DNA of 36,121 nucleotides, taken from IMG/VR virus record IMGVR_UViG_2778261180_000005; one strand, given 5' to 3'. A program made the position numbers and the translations under genes. The stretch comes from a virus. Its lineage: Duplodnaviria > Heunggongvirae > Uroviricota > Caudoviricetes. The notes under the pieces are model-generated. The model had not been told where the DNA came from and made no database searches. It worked only from the letters and a program-made list of their open reading frames with translations. This document shows positions 1 to 36,121 of this stretch, piece by piece (the first letter of the stretch is position 1; every line of letters begins with the position of its first letter).

Positions 1-387
1 ATGTTCAATATCATGATTCGTAAATTTGGCGAGATGACTTTCGAGAAAGCTGGTGTTGCTCGTACCGAAGAAGAAGCAATGGCCTTAGTTCTGGTAGCAC
101 TGAGATCATCACCTGAGATTATCGACGCTGAATATGTAGCTGCTGAGGGTGAGATTAAAGAGATTAAAGCGGTGGCTAAGGAATTAGGTGTTAAAGGTTT
201 CCGTAAGCTGAGACTATCCCGCGAGTCATATGTAATTGGTAAGCAAGGACAATACCTAGATGAGAATACCGTGATTATTCTACTGAATAAGATCACCCGC
301 TATGGTTTCCAGATTGAGCAATATAAAACGTGTTTCGAATTATACGAAAAAGGTTTGCTGGATACTCTGACCATCGTTCGCGCTTAA
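1..387 (+). CDS. hypothetical protein (128 aa)
   Basis: Long ORF starting at the window edge, so the true start is uncertain; hairpin GGTGGG..CCCACC at 403..420 follows. Confidence 0.5.
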   Translation: MFNIMIRKFGEMTFEKAGVARTEEEAMALVLVALRSSPEIIDAEYVAAEGEIKEIKAVAKELGVKGFRKLRLSRESYVIGKQGQYLDENTVIILLNKITRYGFQIEQYKTCFELYEKGLLDTLTIVRA

Positions 388-443
388 TTAATTTCTAATT
401 TGGTGGGTGTAATTCCCACCGCTGTTTAAATGGAGAATCAAAC

Positions 444-524
444 ATGTTAGCTTTTATCTCATTCGTGGGAGGTAGTCTCACAACTATGATTAGTCTTGCT
501 TATCTTGTCGTTAGTATGGGGTGA
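444..524 (+). CDS. small hydrophobic peptide (26 aa), candidate
   Basis: ATG preceded by GGAGAA at 7 nt; product MLAFISFVGGSLTTMISLAYLVVSMG is entirely hydrophobic. Confidence 0.25.
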   Translation: MLAFISFVGGSLTTMISLAYLVVSMG

Positions 525-527
525 GCA

Positions 528-653
528 ATGAAACAATTTCATGATGGCATTTCATCTAAGACATTCAAGAAAGAATATAGCGGATTGTGTATTAACTGGA
601 TGGATTTGATTGGCGCGGTTGTGTTTGGTCTGATTATTAGTATTAACTTTTAA
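528..653 (+). CDS. small membrane protein (41 aa), candidate
   Basis: ATG 4 nt after the previous stop, with GGGGTGAG upstream; C-terminal transmembrane segment LIGAVVFGLIISINF. Confidence 0.3.
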   Translation: MKQFHDGISSKTFKKEYSGLCINWMDLIGAVVFGLIISINF

Positions 654-698
654 CGATATAAATATATCGTAATTCAAACAACAAGAGGAAATTCTACT

Positions 699-944
699 AT
701 GAAAAAGATTATCGCTGGTGTTGTTCTTGCTCTGGGTTTGGTTGGTGCTGCGAATGCCGAACAATATGTACAGGGTGATAGTGTCAAACGTGCTGCCGTT
801 GCACCTTCTTTAAATCAACTGTGTACTGAATTAGCACAGGTTGCCGGAGTTGGTGACGATGACGACTTTATTACTGCGTGTGTATGGAGTCATATCGAGG
901 ATATTAATAAACGTGATGCAAAACTAACTGGAAAGAAATATTAA
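699..944 (+). CDS. small secreted protein (81 aa) with Sec signal peptide
   Basis: SD AAGAGGA 9 nt upstream; N-terminus MKKIIAGVVLALGLVGAANA with an AxA cleavage motif; two Cys in the mature part. Confidence 0.6.
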   Translation: MKKIIAGVVLALGLVGAANAEQYVQGDSVKRAAVAPSLNQLCTELAQVAGVGDDDDFITACVWSHIEDINKRDAKLTGKKY

Positions 945-960
945 TGACTTACTAACCAAT

Positions 961-1000
961 GCCCCTATCGTTATAATACGCGGTAGGGGCGTTTTTGTTT
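961..1000 (+). terminator. rho-independent terminator
   Basis: GCCCCTA(961-967)/TAGGGGC(984-990) stem followed by TTTTTGTTT. Confidence 0.7.
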
Positions 1001-1009
1001 GGAAATGGT

Positions 1010-2689
1010 ATGAAAACTAAACTGTATTCGTATATTCGCTTCTCGTCTATGAAGCAAGCGGATGGTAGTTCTTATGAACGCCAGAAGAGAACAGCCGCAG
1101 AGATAGCCGCAAAATATGATCTTGAGCTAGTTACAAGCTATCAGGATTTTGGTGTATCTGCATTCAAAGGGGCTAACAGTAGAACAGGTGCACTATCTCG
1201 CTTTCTGGATGAGATTGGTCGATCCGTTCCGGTTGGTAGCTGGCTGGTTGTGGAAAACTTAGACCGTATCTCTCGCCAATCCATCATTGAAGCACAAGAG
1301 CTATTTCTCTCGATTATCCGTAGGGGAATAACTATCGTAACTGGCATGGATGGTAAGGTCTATAGCAAGGAATCGGTTAATGCCAATCCTATTGATTTGC
1401 TGTTGAGTGTCATGTTGTTTGCGAGAGCTAACGAGGAAAGTCAGACTAAGCGCAATCGTACTAACTCAAGCGCATTGATTAAGATTAAAGCTCATCAAGA
1501 AAATCCACAAAATCCGGCTGTTGCAATCGAGGAAATTGGAAAGAATATGTGGTGGACTGATACCACATCTGGTTATGTGCTTCCTCATCCGGTCTTCTTC
1601 CCTATTGTTCAGGAAGTTGTGGAATTACGCAGGAATGGACGGTCAACCGCCGAGATACTGGATCACCTTAACGCGACATACACACCACCACCAGCCGCAA
1701 GTCACAAGAGGCATTCAAACTGGTCACGGGCAATGATTGAAAGGTTGTTCCATACCCGCGCTTTGATTGGTATCAAGGAAATCTCTGTAGATGGCGTTAA
1801 GTATGAGTTAAAGGATTATTATCCTCGTGTGCTAGATGACGCTGAGTTTTATCACCTTAAGAAAAGCATTGGTGTTAGAGCATGTAACTATGGAGACAAG
1901 GAAGAAGTTAAACCTATTCCCTTGCTTAGTGGTGTTGGTCTATTGAAATGTGAACATTGCGGTTCCGCTATGGTTAAGGTGAAAGGAACTAACAAACGTC
2001 CTAACCAATATCGTTATTCATGCGATGCAATGCGCTCTAGTCGTATTGCATGTGTGCATACAAACTGGAGTTTTCGAGGTGATCAATTAGAGAAAGCTGT
2101 ATTGCAATTGCTGGCTGATAAAATCTGGATTGCTGAGGATAAGGCTAATCCGGTTCCGGCTTTGAAAGTACAGATTGATGAAATATCACGCAAGATTGAT
2201 AACCTGATTACCCTTTCTGCTATGACAGGAGCAACGAAGGAGCTAGCCGATCAGATTACTACCCTCAATAGCGAGCGTGAAACACTCTACAATCAAATTA
2301 AGATGGCAGAAGAGGAAATGTATTCTGTTGACTCTCAAGGCTGGGAGAAGCTCGCAGAATTTGATTTAGAAGATGTTTACAACGAGGATCGCATTAAGGT
2401 CCGGTTTAAGATTAAGCAAGCTCTAAAACGGATCGGGTGTAGCAGGATTGACAAGTACAAAAACTTGTTTGTACTGGAATACATCGATGGCAAGACCCAG
2501 AGAGTTGTAATAGAAAATTCAAGAGGACCGAGGAAAGGCCGGATCTTCGTTGATTTGAAAACTATCAATGATAGACAGATTCTGGAAAGTAACGGGCTTG
2601 TTTTGCATCCATGTTTAGACATGCTGACAGATAAGAACTGGAAACCAGAAGAGGAAATACCAGGTCCATTACAGGAATTTGGAATTTAA
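1010..2689 (+). CDS. large serine recombinase (integrase-type), 559 aa
   Basis: N-terminal resolvase-like catalytic region (YIRFSSMKQ..SYERQ); central recombinase domain; Cys-rich zinc-ribbon (CEHCGSAMVKV...YSCDAMRSSRIACVH); C-terminal coiled coil. ATG at 1010 preferred over the TTG at 995. Confidence 0.85.
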   Translation: MKTKLYSYIRFSSMKQADGSSYERQKRTAAEIAAKYDLELVTSYQDFGVSAFKGANSRTGALSRFLDEIGRSVPVGSWLVVENLDRISRQSIIEAQELFLSIIRRGITIVTGMDGKVYSKESVNANPIDLLLSVMLFARANEESQTKRNRTNSSALIKIKAHQENPQNPAVAIEEIGKNMWWTDTTSGYVLPHPVFFPIVQEVVELRRNGRSTAEILDHLNATYTPPPAASHKRHSNWSRAMIERLFHTRALIGIKEISVDGVKYELKDYYPRVLDDAEFYHLKKSIGVRACNYGDKEEVKPIPLLSGVGLLKCEHCGSAMVKVKGTNKRPNQYRYSCDAMRSSRIACVHTNWSFRGDQLEKAVLQLLADKIWIAEDKANPVPALKVQIDEISRKIDNLITLSAMTGATKELADQITTLNSERETLYNQIKMAEEEMYSVDSQGWEKLAEFDLEDVYNEDRIKVRFKIKQALKRIGCSRIDKYKNLFVLEYIDGKTQRVVIENSRGPRKGRIFVDLKTINDRQILESNGLVLHPCLDMLTDKNWKPEEEIPGPLQEFGI

Positions 2690-2725
2690 GCGGCCTAAAT
2701 CGACGTATAACGAGCTAAAACAGTT

Positions 2726-2750
2726 AAGGGGTACATTCGTACCCCTTTTG
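2726..2750. terminator. bidirectional intrinsic terminator between convergent genes
   Basis: AAGGGGTAC attc GTACCCCTT perfect hairpin, flanked by an A-run upstream and TTTT downstream. Confidence 0.7.
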
Positions 2751-2762
2751 AATTTAATTGCG

Positions 2763-3761
2763 TTAGAGAGCCTCTAAAGGGCTTAAATCGAGTTCTAAGT
2801 TTTCCGGTGTTAAATCAGCTAACGGTGCATTCATCCACTGCGATAAATCTCGTTCTATGTCTTCATCACTAATGTAGTTGTTCAGATTGATTGCGTTGGT
2901 ATCATCAAAATACATTGGCTTAGATGGGTTGGTGTGGATGTATTCATTGATGAATGATTTAACATCTTTCAGCTTGCTAATCGGTAGCGTTTCTGTGAAT
3001 CCGCTATTCATTACCTTACGTGGGATTTTCTTGCCCTGAATATTCTTTTTAATCCCCATTTCTAAATCACCAGCTTTCCATCCAATGTTAAACAAATGTG
3101 AGCATTCAAAGGTGATTTTCTCGCTGGTGTGCTTCTGGTGTTCTCTTACCCGTTGCATCGGATCTTTGCGAGTGGTAATTCCATATTTGAAAAACTTCTC
3201 GCCAACACGAATTAGATAAAAGTGCATAGGGCGCTGTGCAAACTTGTTTCTGATAACCTGTTTTCTACCATTCTGAATTGATTTAAGTACACCCCTAACC
3301 AAAGGGCATGTTAACCCGCCTTGTCTGCGGTTATTGTGTAAATCACCTTTCTTGTGAATCTTTCCGTGGCACTTACAACGAAGAATTAGTTTAGTGTCAA
3401 CACCCTGATAAGGTTCAGCCAGACCTAACACATCCCACCCTATCGGCTTGTAGAACTTGCGAGCGTTTTCTAAGTGTTCTTCTTCGGTAAATCTAAACTT
3501 CTTCTTAGGCGGTGATACTCTATCTTTGCCAGTAAACTGACCAGTTAGAACATGACTAATACATGGCGTTTTAACCTTTCCGTTAACTTCTATGCAAACT
3601 TTGGTGTTCTGGAATGGTTTCTTTACAGGAAGCACAAAACCACTGTATAACCATCCATGCGCTTGACAAACTTTAATGATTCTGGTTTCATATTCGACCG
3701 GAGGGGTCGCACGTTTGCTTTTTGCGGTAAATTCGATATCCTTTGCTAAAGTAGTATTCAT
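2763..3761 (-). CDS. Zn-finger plus T5orf172/GIY-YIG-like domain protein (homing-endonuclease-like), 332 aa
   Basis: Start moved to ATG at 3761 (SD GAGGA 7 nt upstream); CxxC..CxxC-type cluster (CKCHGK..TCPLV) followed by FYLIRVGEKFFKYGITTRKDPMQRVREH. Confidence 0.65.
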   Translation of the reverse strand: MNTTLAKDIEFTAKSKRATPPVEYETRIIKVCQAHGWLYSGFVLPVKKPFQNTKVCIEVNGKVKTPCISHVLTGQFTGKDRVSPPKKKFRFTEEEHLENARKFYKPIGWDVLGLAEPYQGVDTKLILRCKCHGKIHKKGDLHNNRRQGGLTCPLVRGVLKSIQNGRKQVIRNKFAQRPMHFYLIRVGEKFFKYGITTRKDPMQRVREHQKHTSEKITFECSHLFNIGWKAGDLEMGIKKNIQGKKIPRKVMNSGFTETLPISKLKDVKSFINEYIHTNPSKPMYFDDTNAINLNNYISDEDIERDLSQWMNAPLADLTPENLELDLSPLEAL

Positions 3762-3796
3762 ATTAGTGTCCTCGAAAATAATAAGTTCACTACTAT

Positions 3797-4249
3797 TTAT
3801 TGAGAAAAATTTGTTGTAATGGTTGAAGACCACGGGCATGAGTAGTAACCACGACCGCCACCGATCAAGCAAATGGTCGGACGGAAGCCAGTAAGATCGC
3901 AAAATGAATCAGTGTCATGTGCTGGGGAACGATGCTCTGCTTCGTTAGAGAAAATGTTGGCTACCGGAGATTCCACTTTAACTTCCGGTGCTTCTTCAAC
4001 ATCTGACTTAACTTCTTCGACCACTGGTTCAACTGCCGGAGATTCTTCTTTTGTTTCTTCAATGACGATCTCAGGTTCTTTCATTGCTTCAACCAGAGAC
4101 GGATCAACTTCGTCGAATACCACTTTATCATCTGCGGTGTCTGCTGCCAGAATAAGATCGTTAATACTGGTTCCTTCTGCCGGAGTTTCTTCTTCCATTT
4201 CGGAAGCCAGTTTAGTTAATTCGGTTTCTACGAACTCGATCATCAACAT
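3797..4249 (-). CDS. acidic hypothetical protein (150 aa)
   Basis: Glu/Asp-rich ORF; the opposite-strand ORF 3873..4277 is Ser/Thr-rich as expected for an antisense artefact; weak RBS. Confidence 0.4.
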   Translation of the reverse strand: MLMIEFVETELTKLASEMEEETPAEGTSINDLILAADTADDKVVFDEVDPSLVEAMKEPEIVIEETKEESPAVEPVVEEVKSDVEEAPEVKVESPVANIFSNEAEHRSPAHDTDSFCDLTGFRPTICLIGGGRGYYSCPWSSTITTNFSQ

Positions 4250-4289
4250 TAAAGGTAATGCCTATAAGATAAATTAAGTGAGGTTTTTT

Positions 4290-4871
4290 ATGATGAATGA
4301 TGTGCGCAAAGCATGTGATATCCCGTTCAATTTTATCCGCACCAAAAATGGCAAAGCGCCATCACATCCAATTGATATGGAAGCAAGGATCGTGACCCGT
4401 ATTGAAAACGAGGGTTTACCCTTGATTTATCACGGATTCAAAGGTGAGTATAAATCAATCAATAGCCGTATTGTGCTAGAGTGTGAAAGCTGCGCAAGAA
4501 TCAGAGATATAACAGCAAAACAATTCTTACATAATCCTACTGTGTGCCCGTGTAATCGTAGCAAATATGACAACAAATATAAAAATGGGCAACCAGTATT
4601 ATATGTTATGCGGTGTGGTGATGTGGGTAAGGTTGGAGTAAGTCACAATGTGTTGACGAGAAAACATAAGCTAAGATGCCAGAATAAGATGAAATTTGAT
4701 ATCATCGAGACTTTCGAATTTCAAGACGAAAAAGACGCATACGCGGCAGAATTGTTTATCAAGAAAAACCTAGTAAAAGGTGATTTTGATATTAAAGAAG
4801 GTGCTACAGAAACGTTTGTTTATAATGAAAAAATGGTCAGAAATATAGCTAACGTCGCCAGCATATTCTAA
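4290..4871 (+). CDS. Zn-finger plus T5orf172/GIY-YIG-like domain protein, paralog of 2763..3761 (193 aa)
   Basis: ATG at 4290 with AGTGAGG SD; CESC..CPC cluster followed by LYVMRCGDVGKVGVSHNVLTRKHKL. Confidence 0.65.
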   Translation: MMNDVRKACDIPFNFIRTKNGKAPSHPIDMEARIVTRIENEGLPLIYHGFKGEYKSINSRIVLECESCARIRDITAKQFLHNPTVCPCNRSKYDNKYKNGQPVLYVMRCGDVGKVGVSHNVLTRKHKLRCQNKMKFDIIETFEFQDEKDAYAAELFIKKNLVKGDFDIKEGATETFVYNEKMVRNIANVASIF

Positions 4872-4872
4872 C

Positions 4873-4905
4873 AAAAAAGCGCCCACTAGAGGCGCTTTAA
4901 TTTTA
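4873..4905. terminator. bidirectional intrinsic terminator
   Basis: AGCGCC cactaga GGCGCT hairpin between an A6 run and TTTAATTTT; sits between convergent genes. Confidence 0.7.
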
Positions 4906-5256
4906 TCCATTCCACCGTGATTTTTTTGATCTGGAATCAATATGCGTAAAGGTTTTATATTTTCCTAAGCCGTATTGAGTAGGATATTTCCCATCAAGAT
5001 AAGCATGGACAATATCAGGGGAGACACCCTTGACCACAATGTCAGCCGCACGGCCTCGAACGTGATAGCTGTTGGTTGCCCCGCCTACATTCTTGTTATG
5101 AGCCGGGCAACGGTTGCCACTGTTAATAATCACTGGTTTACCGAAGTGTTCTCGTACATCCTCAAGAATTACCAGTAATTCAGCGTCGATTGTATCATAA
5201 TCACATTTTCCGCATTTACATTTAAATTCCTTGCGAGAAAAATGTTTGCTTAACAT
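4903..5256 (-). CDS. endolysin, peptidase M15 family (117 aa)
   Basis: Motifs SRKEFKCKCGKC, GGATNSYHVRGRAADI and FTHID typical of zinc M15 peptidoglycan peptidases; SD AAGGGGG. Confidence 0.85.
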   Translation of the reverse strand: MLSKHFSRKEFKCKCGKCDYDTIDAELLVILEDVREHFGKPVIINSGNRCPAHNKNVGGATNSYHVRGRAADIVVKGVSPDIVHAYLDGKYPTQYGLGKYKTFTHIDSRSKKSRWNG

Positions 5257-5651: not shown

Positions 5652-6335
5652 TTAAACGTATTTCATGCGCGATTTAATGTGCTTATTGATGTTTTCAAGC
5701 ATCATTGCTTCGTTGCTTTCCCACGATCCTAGCGTCGAATAACGAGTAGAAATTTTATCCGATTTAACGGCAACAATTCGCTTACTCTGTTTCTGTATGC
5801 GTTTCTCTAAGCGACGTTTTGCCACCGCCGATCCATTCTTAGCGCGTTTGGTTCGGGATTTCTTAGGCTTGTACTTCTTCATGATAAAAGTCCCTTCCTT
5901 GTTCTCTACCTTGATGAAGTTGCCATTTTCGATGTTACGCATCATCTTACCGCCTTTGATGGCCTTAATGTTCCCGTGGGAGTCTAAGACCTTGCCGTTA
6001 GCGATTGGAACTAGCTTATTGATTTTGCCACCATCGAAATAGTGTTTCAAATAGTCGTCCTGACTTCCGATCTTCTTGTCCTTATCCCTTGCGCCCTTGA
6101 TGAAGATTTGGTGTCTGGTCCCTGATCGGTTCTTGTAGTTGGTATTACCTACAGCTTGCTGAGTCCAGCGAGTAGGTCTATCAACATTCTTGTTAATCTT
6201 CTTCTGGAGTGCTCTGGAAGCAAAGATCGCCCCTTCCCCTATCGCCCTTTCGAATGTATCGGTTGCCTTTTCAGACCATTGCCGTAACGCTTTCTTAGTC
6301 CTTAGAGCGTTTCGTTTATTGGTACTGGTTGCCAT
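5652..6335 (-). CDS. basic hypothetical protein (227 aa)
   Basis: Lys/Arg-rich ORF; AGGGGG SD; start overlaps the stop of the upstream small gene (TAACATG). Confidence 0.6.
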   Translation of the reverse strand: MATSTNKRNALRTKKALRQWSEKATDTFERAIGEGAIFASRALQKKINKNVDRPTRWTQQAVGNTNYKNRSGTRHQIFIKGARDKDKKIGSQDDYLKHYFDGGKINKLVPIANGKVLDSHGNIKAIKGGKMMRNIENGNFIKVENKEGTFIMKKYKPKKSRTKRAKNGSAVAKRRLEKRIQKQSKRIVAVKSDKISTRYSTLGSWESNEAMMLENINKHIKSRMKYV

Positions 6336-6336
6336 G

Positions 6337-6507
6337 TTAGCCCCCTAATAACGAAAAGACCCCCGCCAGTGTCCTTAGCAATTGTTCGTCCACGGTCATA
6401 GCCGGGAGTTCAAGCCCAAAGGACGTAAGCAGAGGTCTAATTGCTACGTTATAAGTGAGGGCGATAATCAAGAGATAACCAAAATATTTCTTAAGTTTAT
6501 TCTTCAT
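6337..6507 (-). CDS. small membrane protein (56 aa), possible holin-like lysis component
   Basis: Not in the ORF track (under 60 aa); AAGGGGTG SD 6 nt upstream; N-terminal TM segment YFGYLLIIALTYNVAI; no Cys, so not a lipoprotein o-spanin. Confidence 0.4.
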   Translation of the reverse strand: MKNKLKKYFGYLLIIALTYNVAIRPLLTSFGLELPAMTVDEQLLRTLAGVFSLLGG

Positions 6508-6525: not shown

Positions 6526-6804
6526 TTATTTTTGTTTGAGTATGTCGAGAACTTGGTCAAATTTAGCGTCCATCGCAACCACTTTCTTTTCTATACCGTG
6601 AAGGGTTTGTTCCATGCGATAAACTCTCTCGGCGATCTGGTCATGGTTACTTTGCATCGTCTCAAACTTCTGGTTTAACAATGCGTCGCTGGATTCTAAT
6701 TTCGACAATCTATTTTCTGTGGCTAATTGATTTCGGTGAAGTCTCCATAATCCACCACAAATTAAGGCGATAACACCGATACCGCCATATATAATTTCAG
6801 TCAT
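6526..6804 (-). CDS. membrane-anchored coiled-coil protein, i-spanin-like (93 aa)
   Basis: Start moved to ATG at 6804 (GGGGGCG SD); N-terminal TM segment IIYGGIGVIALICGGLW followed by a predicted coiled coil. Confidence 0.45.
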   Translation of the reverse strand: MTEIIYGGIGVIALICGGLWRLHRNQLATENRLSKLESSDALLNQKFETMQSNHDQIAERVYRMEQTLHGIEKKVVAMDAKFDQVLDILKQK

Positions 6805-6848
6805 TACGCCCCCGATATTTTTATATAGTTTAATGGCAAAATTATTTA

Positions 6849-34168: not shown

Positions 34169-34453
34169 TTATTTAGTCTGTTTGAAAACAAACGTTAAAA
34201 ATTCGATTAAGCAATATACCCAAAGTACGGTCAGCATCAAATGCATAGCAATAGTTGGATGGAAGTTAAAAAGTGTCATACTAACTAGGCCAACAATATA
34301 AGAAATCCCTTCGACAATTAACGCAAGGCTAGCAAATGCAACAAACGCACCTAAGAATAATTCGCCTCGTTCTTTCGGTTCGGTTCCGAGTTTATAAGCA
34401 GAGATAGCAGCCAGAATAGTAATGATGACAGCATAGGTAATAAAAGTAGCCAT
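34169..34453 (-). CDS. small integral membrane protein (94 aa, about 3 TM segments)
   Basis: AAGAGGA SD; hydrophobic segments ITYAVIITILAAISAY, LGAFVAFASLALIVEGISYIVGLV and LMLTVLWVYCLIEFLTFVF. Confidence 0.65.
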   Translation of the reverse strand: MATFITYAVIITILAAISAYKLGTEPKERGELFLGAFVAFASLALIVEGISYIVGLVSMTLFNFHPTIAMHLMLTVLWVYCLIEFLTFVFKQTK

Positions 34454-35755: not shown

Positions 35756-35770
35756 TTGCAAAAATTTTAG

Positions 35771-36121
35771 TTATTGGGGTTTACAACATTTAGGTTTGCC
35801 AATTCGCCTGGCTAACTCTTGCTGAGTGATTTCTGACTGTAAAAAAGCATTTAACAGCAATACTTTAGAGGCGACGCTCAAAGGTACTTCAATAAAGTGA
35901 TCATGACTATTTAATGGCGAAGGTAACGGGATAAGCTCGTTATCTTCAAAATAAAAATCAAATGCGGTCAGTAAAGCATCTTTTGCCGCTTCCATCGCTT
36001 CAGCGACAGTTTCGCCCTGCGTCAACGCTTCAGGGATATCCACAAAAGAAACCATATAACCGCCTTCCGGCGCGGGTGTAAGAGTGACGGGATAACGCAT
36101 AATTTCGACTGTCTCTCGCAT
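35771..36121 (-). CDS. hicB: HicB-like antitoxin, apparently truncated at its 3' end
   Basis: MRYPVTLTPAPEGGYMVSFVDIPEALTQGETVAEA... N-domain with enterobacterial-like codon usage; HTH begins (SEITQQELARRIGKPK) but the ORF ends CCKPQ* five codons later, at the composition switch. Confidence 0.7.
   Translation of the reverse strand: MRETVEIMRYPVTLTPAPEGGYMVSFVDIPEALTQGETVAEAMEAAKDALLTAFDFYFEDNELIPLPSPLNSHDHFIEVPLSVASKVLLLNAFLQSEITQQELARRIGKPKCCKPQ

Follow-up and report, generated by a model that had tools for sequence, protein, structure and literature searches.

Between the first gene of a phage genome from the IMG/VR collection (record IMGVR_UViG_2778261180_000005, Caudoviricetes; 36,121 nucleotides, the whole of which we call the window) and its large serine recombinase (LSR), which is the prophage integrase, lies a short interval, positions 388 to 1009. 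It holds two very small open reading frames (ORFs), of 26 and 41 amino acids (aa), and a gene for an 81-aa secreted protein. An initial annotation had placed here two small ORFs with Shine-Dalgarno (SD) sequences, an 81-aa Sec-dependent protein with two cysteines, and a strong terminator, all of which we found in place, and it proposed that such clusters at prophage ends commonly encode lysogenic-conversion or exclusion factors, or toxin-like peptides. This raises the question of whether ORFs so short are genes at all and, if they are, what their products might do beside an integration enzyme. The comparisons described below leave us highly confident that the 26-, 41-, and 81-aa genes are real and protein coding. 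As to function, we tentatively favor the possibility that they constitute a small module of the inner membrane and periplasm that interferes with a step at the envelope, most plausibly the entry of DNA from other phages.

Hydrophobicity does not set the small ORFs apart from chance, because equally hydrophobic off-frame small ORFs occur elsewhere in the window. We compared the locus across 28 related IMG/VR prophages, 9 metagenome contigs, complete genomes, and distant relatives reached through a protein database; the family includes a hicB lineage, to which the window belongs, and a second, ycdX lineage, each named for a chromosomal integration site. At every locus with a 41-aa-type ORF (47/47), a hydrophobic ORF of 25 to 32 aa lies upstream and both ORFs are intact, and the LSR follows in all of these loci whose sequence extends far enough (the 26-aa-type ORF of locus L085 misses our hydropathy filter and was counted by eye). 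The initial annotation had staked its proposal on the small ORFs being kept in related elements, and on this point it was borne out.

The way in which the two ORFs vary is that of coding sequence. Among relatives, the 26-aa ORF occurs as 13 distinct sequences. In the close set, its polymorphic sites number 2, 1, and 7 at the first, second, and third codon positions (7/10 third; pN/pS 0.175), and those of the 41-aa ORF number 3, 0, and 10 (10/13 third; pN/pS 0.065), giving a third-position share of 17/23 for both combined (binomial p = 8e-5). Several loci carry a 3-nt deletion that removes one codon from the 41-aa ORF without breaking the frame. In the second lineage, where the LSR is 66 to 71% identical to that of the window, both ORFs persist at the same lengths with pS at ~0.7-0.8 against pN at ~0.25-0.39, and synonymous sites are near saturation; here, the genes are chained by ATGA start/stop overlaps. 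Comparison of the window with loci L050-L052 shows seven nucleotide changes, including a TCT->AGC serine switch, but no amino-acid change in codons 1 to 15 of the 41-aa ORF. Judged by this pattern of substitution, the 26- and 41-aa ORFs are translated genes under selection.

Alternatively, the ORFs could be untranslated, and their conservation could be that of an element acting as DNA or RNA, for instance a recombinase site, an operator, or a leader. We regard this as very improbable. Nucleotide conservation within the hicB lineage is indeed high, short inverted repeats occur in the region, and PGAP annotates neither small ORF in any genome examined. Against this, substitutions concentrate at third codon positions, the serine switch and other synonymous changes leave the peptide as it was, ORF length is kept at about half nucleotide identity, and ATGA overlaps couple the genes. 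The attachment (att) core, moreover, is not found here: one copy precedes position 1 by about 36 nt, and the other is at 35789-35797. Rfam gave no family match. Two narrower candidates were also rejected. Synonymous changes rule against the invariant head of the 41-aa product being a DNA element or att site, and the 41-aa ORF is a poor candidate for a leader peptide or an attenuator, since its stop-to-hairpin spacing is ordinary and cargo genes lie between in the window's lineage.

What kinds of proteins do these genes encode? The 26-aa product (MLAFISFVGGSLTTMISLAYLVVSMG) contains no charged residue, has a GRAVY value of 1.72, and is predicted to be a bare transmembrane (TM) helix. Within this uncharged class of peptides, S6, F7, T14, S17, Y20, and V22-V23 are kept, together with the length of 26 codons, in copies in which about half of the nucleotides have changed; in three loci, this position is taken by a peptide of a second class (MKLLELL...). 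The invariant polar residues (S6, T14, S17, and Y20) fall on one helix face, at 200-320 degrees, and this conserved polar face suggests a helix-helix contact. The 26- and 41-aa ORFs share a frame, with only TGA-GCA between them, and in one database sequence (P0004, 68 aa) a TGA->TGG change fuses the two into a two-helix protein, for which the single-sequence AF2 model (helices 2-35 and 39-67, pLDDT 76) carries little weight. Programmed read-through of the TGA was considered and rejected, as L083 and L085, which have a 4-nt gap, do not keep the two ORFs in one frame, and neither does the other lineage.

The 41-aa product (MKQFHDGISSKTFKKEYSGLCINWMDLIGAVVFGLIISINF) has four lysines among its first 15 residues, and its best 19-residue hydrophobic window begins at residue 21. 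Its head, MKQFHDGISSKTFKK, is invariant, while the C-terminal TM segment varies. From these features, we infer a tail-anchored protein of N-in/C-out topology whose invariant, basic 15-residue peptide faces the cytoplasm. A profile search of 1.84 billion cluster representatives returned 9 clusters in total, all of them with the motif M[KR]QFH[DEQ]GISSKT[FY] and, after it, a TM segment that varies but keeps a conserved G-L..S. Every context that we retrieved for these proteins came from the same prophage family, with the gene directly 5' of the same terminator and LSR.

The 81-aa product begins with a signal peptide, MKK-IIAGVVLALGLVG-AANA/EQ (the slash marks the cleavage site), which we called by inspection using the (-3,-1) rule: it has a KK n-region, a hydrophobic core, and a small-X-small cleavage motif, with no Cys at +1 and no lipobox. 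Both of its cysteines, Cys42 and Cys61, are invariant in 12 homologues of 73-98% identity, all from E. coli, and the loop between them is variable. The AF2 model places helices at 28-49 and 55-77 with a core pLDDT of 78-93, while residues 1-26 are modeled with low confidence and apart from the folded core. Since Cys42 and Cys61 lie symmetrically about the loop in this model, a disulfide-stapled helical hairpin is plausible. We accordingly expect export by Sec, cleavage after ANA, and folding into a hairpin of two helices, which a disulfide between Cys42 and Cys61 could hold together.

The 81-aa gene proved to be one of several occupants of a variable slot. In the hicB-type loci, the order is 26-aa gene, 41-aa gene, variable slot, terminator, and LSR, and the slot either is empty or carries a gene for the 81-aa protein, for a secreted protein of 137/139 aa that has the same signal peptide, or for a lipoprotein of 130 aa; other loci have a 113-aa protein in addition to the 81-aa one, or a 348-aa endonuclease-like insertion. 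The 113-aa protein is bitopic, with a TM segment and a coiled coil and a weak Rz-like/coiled-coil match. A 106-aa lipoprotein is also among the alternative cargo, and its PHROG matches are to families of unknown function or labeled "lipoprotein"; most cargo variants fall in no family of Pfam, NCBIfam, PHROGs, or PADLOC. The ycdX lineage is arranged as 26-aa gene, in some loci a 62-aa gene, a 75-80-aa secreted two-Cys protein, a 40-aa gene, terminator, and LSR, sometimes with a lipoprotein or OmpW-like barrel gene farther upstream (the barrel, in L095, is in the left-arm region, outside the slot). When we aligned the 81-aa family to the two-Cys secreted proteins of the ycdX lineage with hhalign, the signal peptide alone aligned, so that homology of the mature domains is unproven and the two families are analogous in architecture.

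From these gene orders across lineages, we conclude that the 26/41 pair is the backbone of the locus and that its periplasmic or lipoprotein partner is exchangeable, as would be expected for a locus under diversifying pressure. A near-identical signal peptide, MKKIIAG(V/I)VLALGLVGAANA, stands ahead of unrelated mature domains of 81, 77, and 137/139 aa (window 699-760, L006-L011, L018, L022, L025, L026, L055, L085, and L089), which points to exchange of cassettes by recombination within the signal-peptide/5' region. Truncated or frameshifted variants of the 137-aa protein also occur (P0024-P0027). The lysogenic-conversion character suggested by the initial annotation thus fits one part of the locus, the slot after the 41-aa gene with its alternative secreted proteins and lipoproteins, but not the 26/41 pair, which is an LSR-linked backbone across two integration-site lineages and no sporadic "moron."

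The element that carries the module is an uncharacterized E. coli prophage inserted in hicB. PHROG matches to terminase, portal, a fused protease/major-capsid protein, tape measure, tail fibers, and an M15 endolysin identify the window as a siphovirus-type phage genome. In strain ETEC1717 (NZ_CP122876.1; 99.9% identity), a hicB pseudogene without its N terminus adjoins the left end of the prophage, beside ydcR, and the last ORF of the window, at 35771-36121 on the minus strand, is the missing N-terminal part of HicB; it runs up to ...RRIGKPK and then into a 5-residue phage-derived tail, and the remaining C-terminal 40 codons of hicB lie past the left end of the window. The attL and attR sites share a common core, TTTAGGTTT, with attL at L049 5950-5965 and the attR copy of the core at 35789-35797. 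The shared core and the split gene together place the prophage inside the hicB antitoxin gene, and the distance from attL to position 1 places the small genes at the prophage end beside the integration enzyme, as the initial annotation had it. The split falls in the C-terminal helix-turn-helix (HTH) region and leaves the N-terminal domain of HicB intact, and hicAB regulation in lysogens may therefore be altered.

As a family, these prophages are narrowly distributed. Matches were found in 57-58 of 5,426 complete E. coli genomes (~1%). A scan for the LSR with one genome per species found nothing, nor did a second scan with a degenerate pattern of the 41-aa head, and the family is absent from the GTDB representative genomes; pattern scans of viral and metagenome collections found this prophage family and no other. 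Positions 1-3000 of the window had no DNA match among 50,697 deposited phage records in near or distant search modes, and tblastn of the 81- and 41-aa proteins against these records gave chance matches only. A literature search on hicB-integrating serine-recombinase prophages returned nothing relevant. On this evidence, the module comprises new, narrowly distributed micro-protein families in an uncharacterized E. coli prophage. The family uses two chromosomal sites, hicB and ycdX (beside ycdY/ghrA; L050-L056, L092-L095, and L097-L099 compared with the window), with similar att cores, TTTAGGTTT at hicB and TT(T/C)GGG(A/T)TT at ycdX. The LSR of L055, 86% identical to the window's, sits at ycdX, and modest divergence of the recombinase therefore changes site choice.

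When attP was reconstructed from the phage-side arms (35765-35797 joined to the 36 nt before position 1), it contained TTTACA-18-TATAAT, an 11/12 match to consensus, pointing into gene 1 and the small genes. No comparable match was found at attL, where hicB sequence replaces the -35 hexamer. The ycdX lineage has the same geometry, TTGACT-18-TATCAT (L099 ~5885-5900 joined to L097 ~1190-1205). These arrangements suggest that the operon is driven mainly from the circular genome, via a promoter-like site that spans attP, and the restriction of a good promoter match to attP calls into question expression from a repressed prophage.

How, then, could the module act? We prefer the envelope/DNA-entry reading because of an analogy to proteins like HK97 gp15 and because all of the alternative cargo genes encode envelope proteins; hydropathy and charge distribution that fit membrane insertion also support targeting to the envelope, and a place at the prophage end beside the integrase suits an accessory or exclusion-type role. 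Both micro-proteins would sit in the inner membrane as a conserved core, the invariant head would bind a conserved membrane-proximal target, and the periplasmic partner could be exchanged. Together, the three products would alter an inner-membrane or periplasmic step, of which the most plausible is the entry of other phages' DNA (superinfection exclusion), the alternative being another envelope property of the infected or lysogenic cell. Expression would most likely come from the attP-spanning promoter-like site, in which case the module would act mainly on the circular genome, early after infection or after excision, with weak expression at most from attL.

Several observations weigh against an exclusion module. 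The 26-, 41-, and 81-aa proteins had zero family matches in Pfam, NCBIfam, and PHROGs, the 41- and 81-aa proteins had no PADLOC defense match, and the AF2 model of the 81-aa protein had no fold match in PDB or BFVD, with all E-values >0.8; physical interaction among the three products is pure conjecture on our part. Typical exclusion morons are sporadic, whereas the 26/41 pair occurs throughout its family and in strict linkage with the LSR. Nor is the base composition of the module foreign, with only the 41-aa ORF lower in GC (0.381 for 388-1009, 0.415 for the 81-aa gene, and 0.325 for the 41-aa ORF, versus 0.417 for the window and 0.426 for the LSR gene). A consensus scan of positions 1-1000 found no sigma-70-like promoter on the plus strand. 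The promoter-like hexamers of attP may be mere LSR half-site sequence, and if the attP-spanning promoter is real, expression in stable lysogens would be low, a poor fit to classical exclusion by prophage-expressed proteins.

Among known systems, the module would most resemble in its action either the small envelope proteins of prophages (exclusion of the gp15, Imm/Sp, or SieA type) or the regulatory micro-proteins of the chromosome (AcrZ/MgtS/SgrT type), and it has no sequence membership in the known exclusion and defense families (YebO/gp15, Imm, Sp, SieA, Cor, and PADLOC systems). Among E. coli proteins of fewer than 50 aa with a single TM segment, AcrZ, MgtS, SgrT, and MgrB use a short soluble segment or a TM face to modulate a larger membrane protein. 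The invariant 41-aa head and the polar face of the 26-mer suggest the same logic, although those proteins are chromosomal, stand-alone, and individually regulated and have no homology to the module. Phage T4 makes two small envelope proteins early in infection, Imm in the membrane and Sp facing the periplasm, that block DNA entry by later phages. Early expression would match a module expressed from the circular genome; T4, however, is virulent, Imm and Sp are ~80-100 aa rather than 26 or 41, and no homology was detected.

A further parallel is gp15 (YebO-like) of HK97, a small prophage protein of the E. coli inner membrane that blocks genome injection and leaves the outer-membrane receptor untouched (PMC3594210). 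The two share a host, a compartment, a size class, and an accessory position, but searches of Pfam, NCBIfam, and PHROGs revealed no sequence relation. Moreover, gp15 occurs sporadically, as a self-contained transcription unit in the tail operon, whereas the 26/41 pair, whose role is putative, is universal in its family, coupled within an operon, and tied to the LSR. DicB (PMC6832061) and P22 SieA (PMC10883804) are likewise prophage products that protect the host at inner-membrane steps of phage DNA uptake. DicB, however, is cytoplasmic and acts via MinC, SieA is a much larger membrane protein, and neither is similar in sequence. A moron is an independent accessory transcription unit in a phage genome (PMC3594210). 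Of the features of such a unit, the module has its own terminator (958-993), while its base composition does not deviate and no promoter of its own was found in 1-1000; the 81-aa gene is replaced or absent in relatives, and the 26/41 pair is present in 47/47 loci.

It is also possible, although we consider it unlikely, that the module serves not host protection but the life cycle of the phage itself, with a function tied to the LSR or the lysogeny decision and with its products made from the circular genome along with the LSR. At the membrane, the 41-aa head would then bind some factor of the host or the phage, or sequester it, biasing the establishment of lysogeny or controlling excision; candidate partners would be a protease or regulator (as for lambda CIII on FtsH), the LSR, or its directionality factor. 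The 41-aa gene does stand strictly beside the terminator and LSR wherever the sequence reaches, whichever att site is used and even where the LSR is as little as 66% identical, but this adjacency could be mere conserved gene order, all homologues being from one narrow phage family, and the terminator lies between the module and the LSR gene. A cytoplasmic 15-mer that stays invariant while the TM segment drifts, and a 26/41 pair that is backbone rather than sporadic, would suit such a role, yet there is no membrane micro-protein among the known LSR accessory factors, and periplasmic or lipoprotein cargo has no obvious part in a cytoplasmic decision. An attP-spanning promoter, which would shut the operon off upon integration, agrees with this explanation.

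Less likely again, in our view, is that the 26- and 41-aa products are membrane-toxic or lysis-timing peptides (holin/antiholin-like, abortive-infection, or type I-toxin-like) that permeabilize or depolarize the inner membrane. Type I toxins such as Ibs, ShoB, TisB, and Hok are very short hydrophobic peptides from stand-alone loci that need a cis or trans antisense RNA. In its size and its extreme computed hydrophobicity, the 26-mer resembles toxins of the ShoB/Ibs/TisB type, but its gene is not stand-alone, being translationally coupled to its neighbors within an operon (SD sites, ATGA), and no conserved antisense promoter or RNA was found: the sole minus-strand match, a weak promoter-like one at 662->633, is in a spacer missing from the ycdX lineage, promoter-like matches came to 2 in all versus 7.6 expected from shuffled sequences, and Rfam was empty. 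The toxin-like proposal of the initial annotation, therefore, does not hold up well. The natural fusion P0004, with 68 aa and two helices, is of holin-like size, and no PHROG or Pfam holin match identifies the holin of this phage. The in-frame arrangement is not conserved, however, the ORFs being overlapping or separated in other lineages, as well as 4 nt apart in L083 and L085. None of the three module ORFs has a lysis PHROG match, the endolysin gene (Peptidase_M15_3/phrog_894; 4903-5256, minus strand) is 4 kb away on the opposite strand, and membrane ORFs in the lysis/tail region (6337-6507 and 6526-6806) are better placed.

Likely holin or spanin candidates in the window, none with a family match, are three minus-strand ORFs. 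The one at 6337-6507 encodes a small membrane protein of 56 aa, which has a single TM segment at its N terminus and a short hydrophobic stretch at its C terminus, and the one at 6526-6806, between the tail-tip and endolysin genes, encodes a ~92-aa protein with a TM segment and a coiled coil. The third, at 34169-34453, encodes a 94-aa multi-TM protein near the right end.

A bolder version of the envelope reading, which we rate as a long shot, joins the 26-aa helix, the 41-aa protein, and the exchangeable periplasmic disulfide hairpin in a three-part transmembrane micro-complex, made only from the circular genome because integration destroys the attP promoter. If true, serine-integrase phages would possess in this complex an envelope switch of a kind not described before, one that is "circular-genome-only," and such a switch might bar further DNA entry or signal across the membrane, from injection to integration or from excision to lysis.

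The features of the region are collected in the table. The 26-, 41-, and 81-aa genes form the distal part of a rightward operon that starts with gene 1 and is closed by the terminator ahead of the LSR gene.

Table. Genes and sequence elements of the left arm, in window coordinates
Feature	Position	Strand	Remarks
Gene 1, 128 aa	1-387	+	phrog_14908; weak HeH/Rho_N-like motif; first gene of the left-arm operon
6-bp G+C hairpin, GGTGGG-7 nt-CCCACC	402-420	+	Between gene 1 and the 26-aa ORF; weak T-tract after it
26-aa gene, uncharged single-TM micro-protein (predicted)	444-524	+	SD GGAG at 432-435, 8 nt before the ATG
41-aa gene, tail-anchored micro-protein (predicted)	528-653	+	SD GGGGTGAG at 518-525, overlapping the end of the 26-aa ORF
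Perfect 8-bp inverted repeat, ACGATATA-AA-TATATCGT	653-670		In the 45-nt spacer between the 41- and 81-aa genes; left border of the variable slot
81-aa gene, secreted protein (predicted)	699-944	+	SD GAGGA at 685-689; signal peptide 699-758; mature 61-aa domain 759-941
Intrinsic terminator	958-1003	+	14-pair stem at 958-993 (7 pairs G-C); T-rich tail
LSR gene (prophage integrase), 559 aa	1010-2689	+	phrog_95 integrase; PGAP start at 1010

The recombinase, called integrase-type in the initial annotation, is an integrase, although of the serine and not the tyrosine kind, as all three LSR domains matched (Resolvase PF00239, 7.5e-15; Recombinase PF07508, 1.3e-7; and Zn_ribbon_recom PF13408, 6.8e-10). 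Its start codon lies 7 nt past the terminator tail. The terminator stem, GCCCCTA...TAGGGGC, is conserved in sequence in both lineages (958-1009; L050 5138-5186; L092, L094, and L095). Its loop holds TATAAT in most copies, L095 being without it, and this TATAAT may be the -10 element of an LSR promoter embedded in the terminator. The inverted repeat at the border of the slot may serve as an operator or as a hotspot of recombination, or it may form a small hairpin. Farther upstream, gene 1 is kept or replaced in relatives, and the hairpin that follows it is kept across hicB-lineage loci, also in those that lack gene 1.

The C-terminal domain of gene 1 (150-384) shares 45% identity with a hypothetical protein from the early region of RB49-like phages, which are of the T4 type; in RB49, the genes around the homologue were uninformative. 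Relatives of this siphovirus-type prophage also carry UvsW- and UvsY-like genes (L052 9642-11578), and these genes, together with the gene 1 domain, point to mosaic ancestry with T4-like phages. Endonuclease-like paralogues (phrog_681, with T5orf172/CapR-like matches in relatives) flank the region downstream of the LSR gene, at 2763-3902 on the minus strand and 4278-4871 on the plus strand. A third, of 348 aa, is the insertion in the cargo slot of L027 (578-1624). Such behavior suggests mobility of the homing-endonuclease type.

For this prophage family, standard annotation misses two of the genes under the strongest constraint. With its invariant head of 15 residues, the 41-aa protein is a clean candidate, amenable to experiment, for a new micro-protein that regulates some process of the inner membrane, and the adjacent slot, polymorphic in its secreted proteins and lipoproteins, has the look of an arms-race locus. 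A link between the module and the attP-spanning promoter, if real, would provide an example of integration-state-dependent gene control in a serine-integrase phage. If the module blocks phage DNA entry, as we tentatively propose, it would be a new exclusion system of very small size, with a bearing on phage therapy against ETEC and other E. coli.

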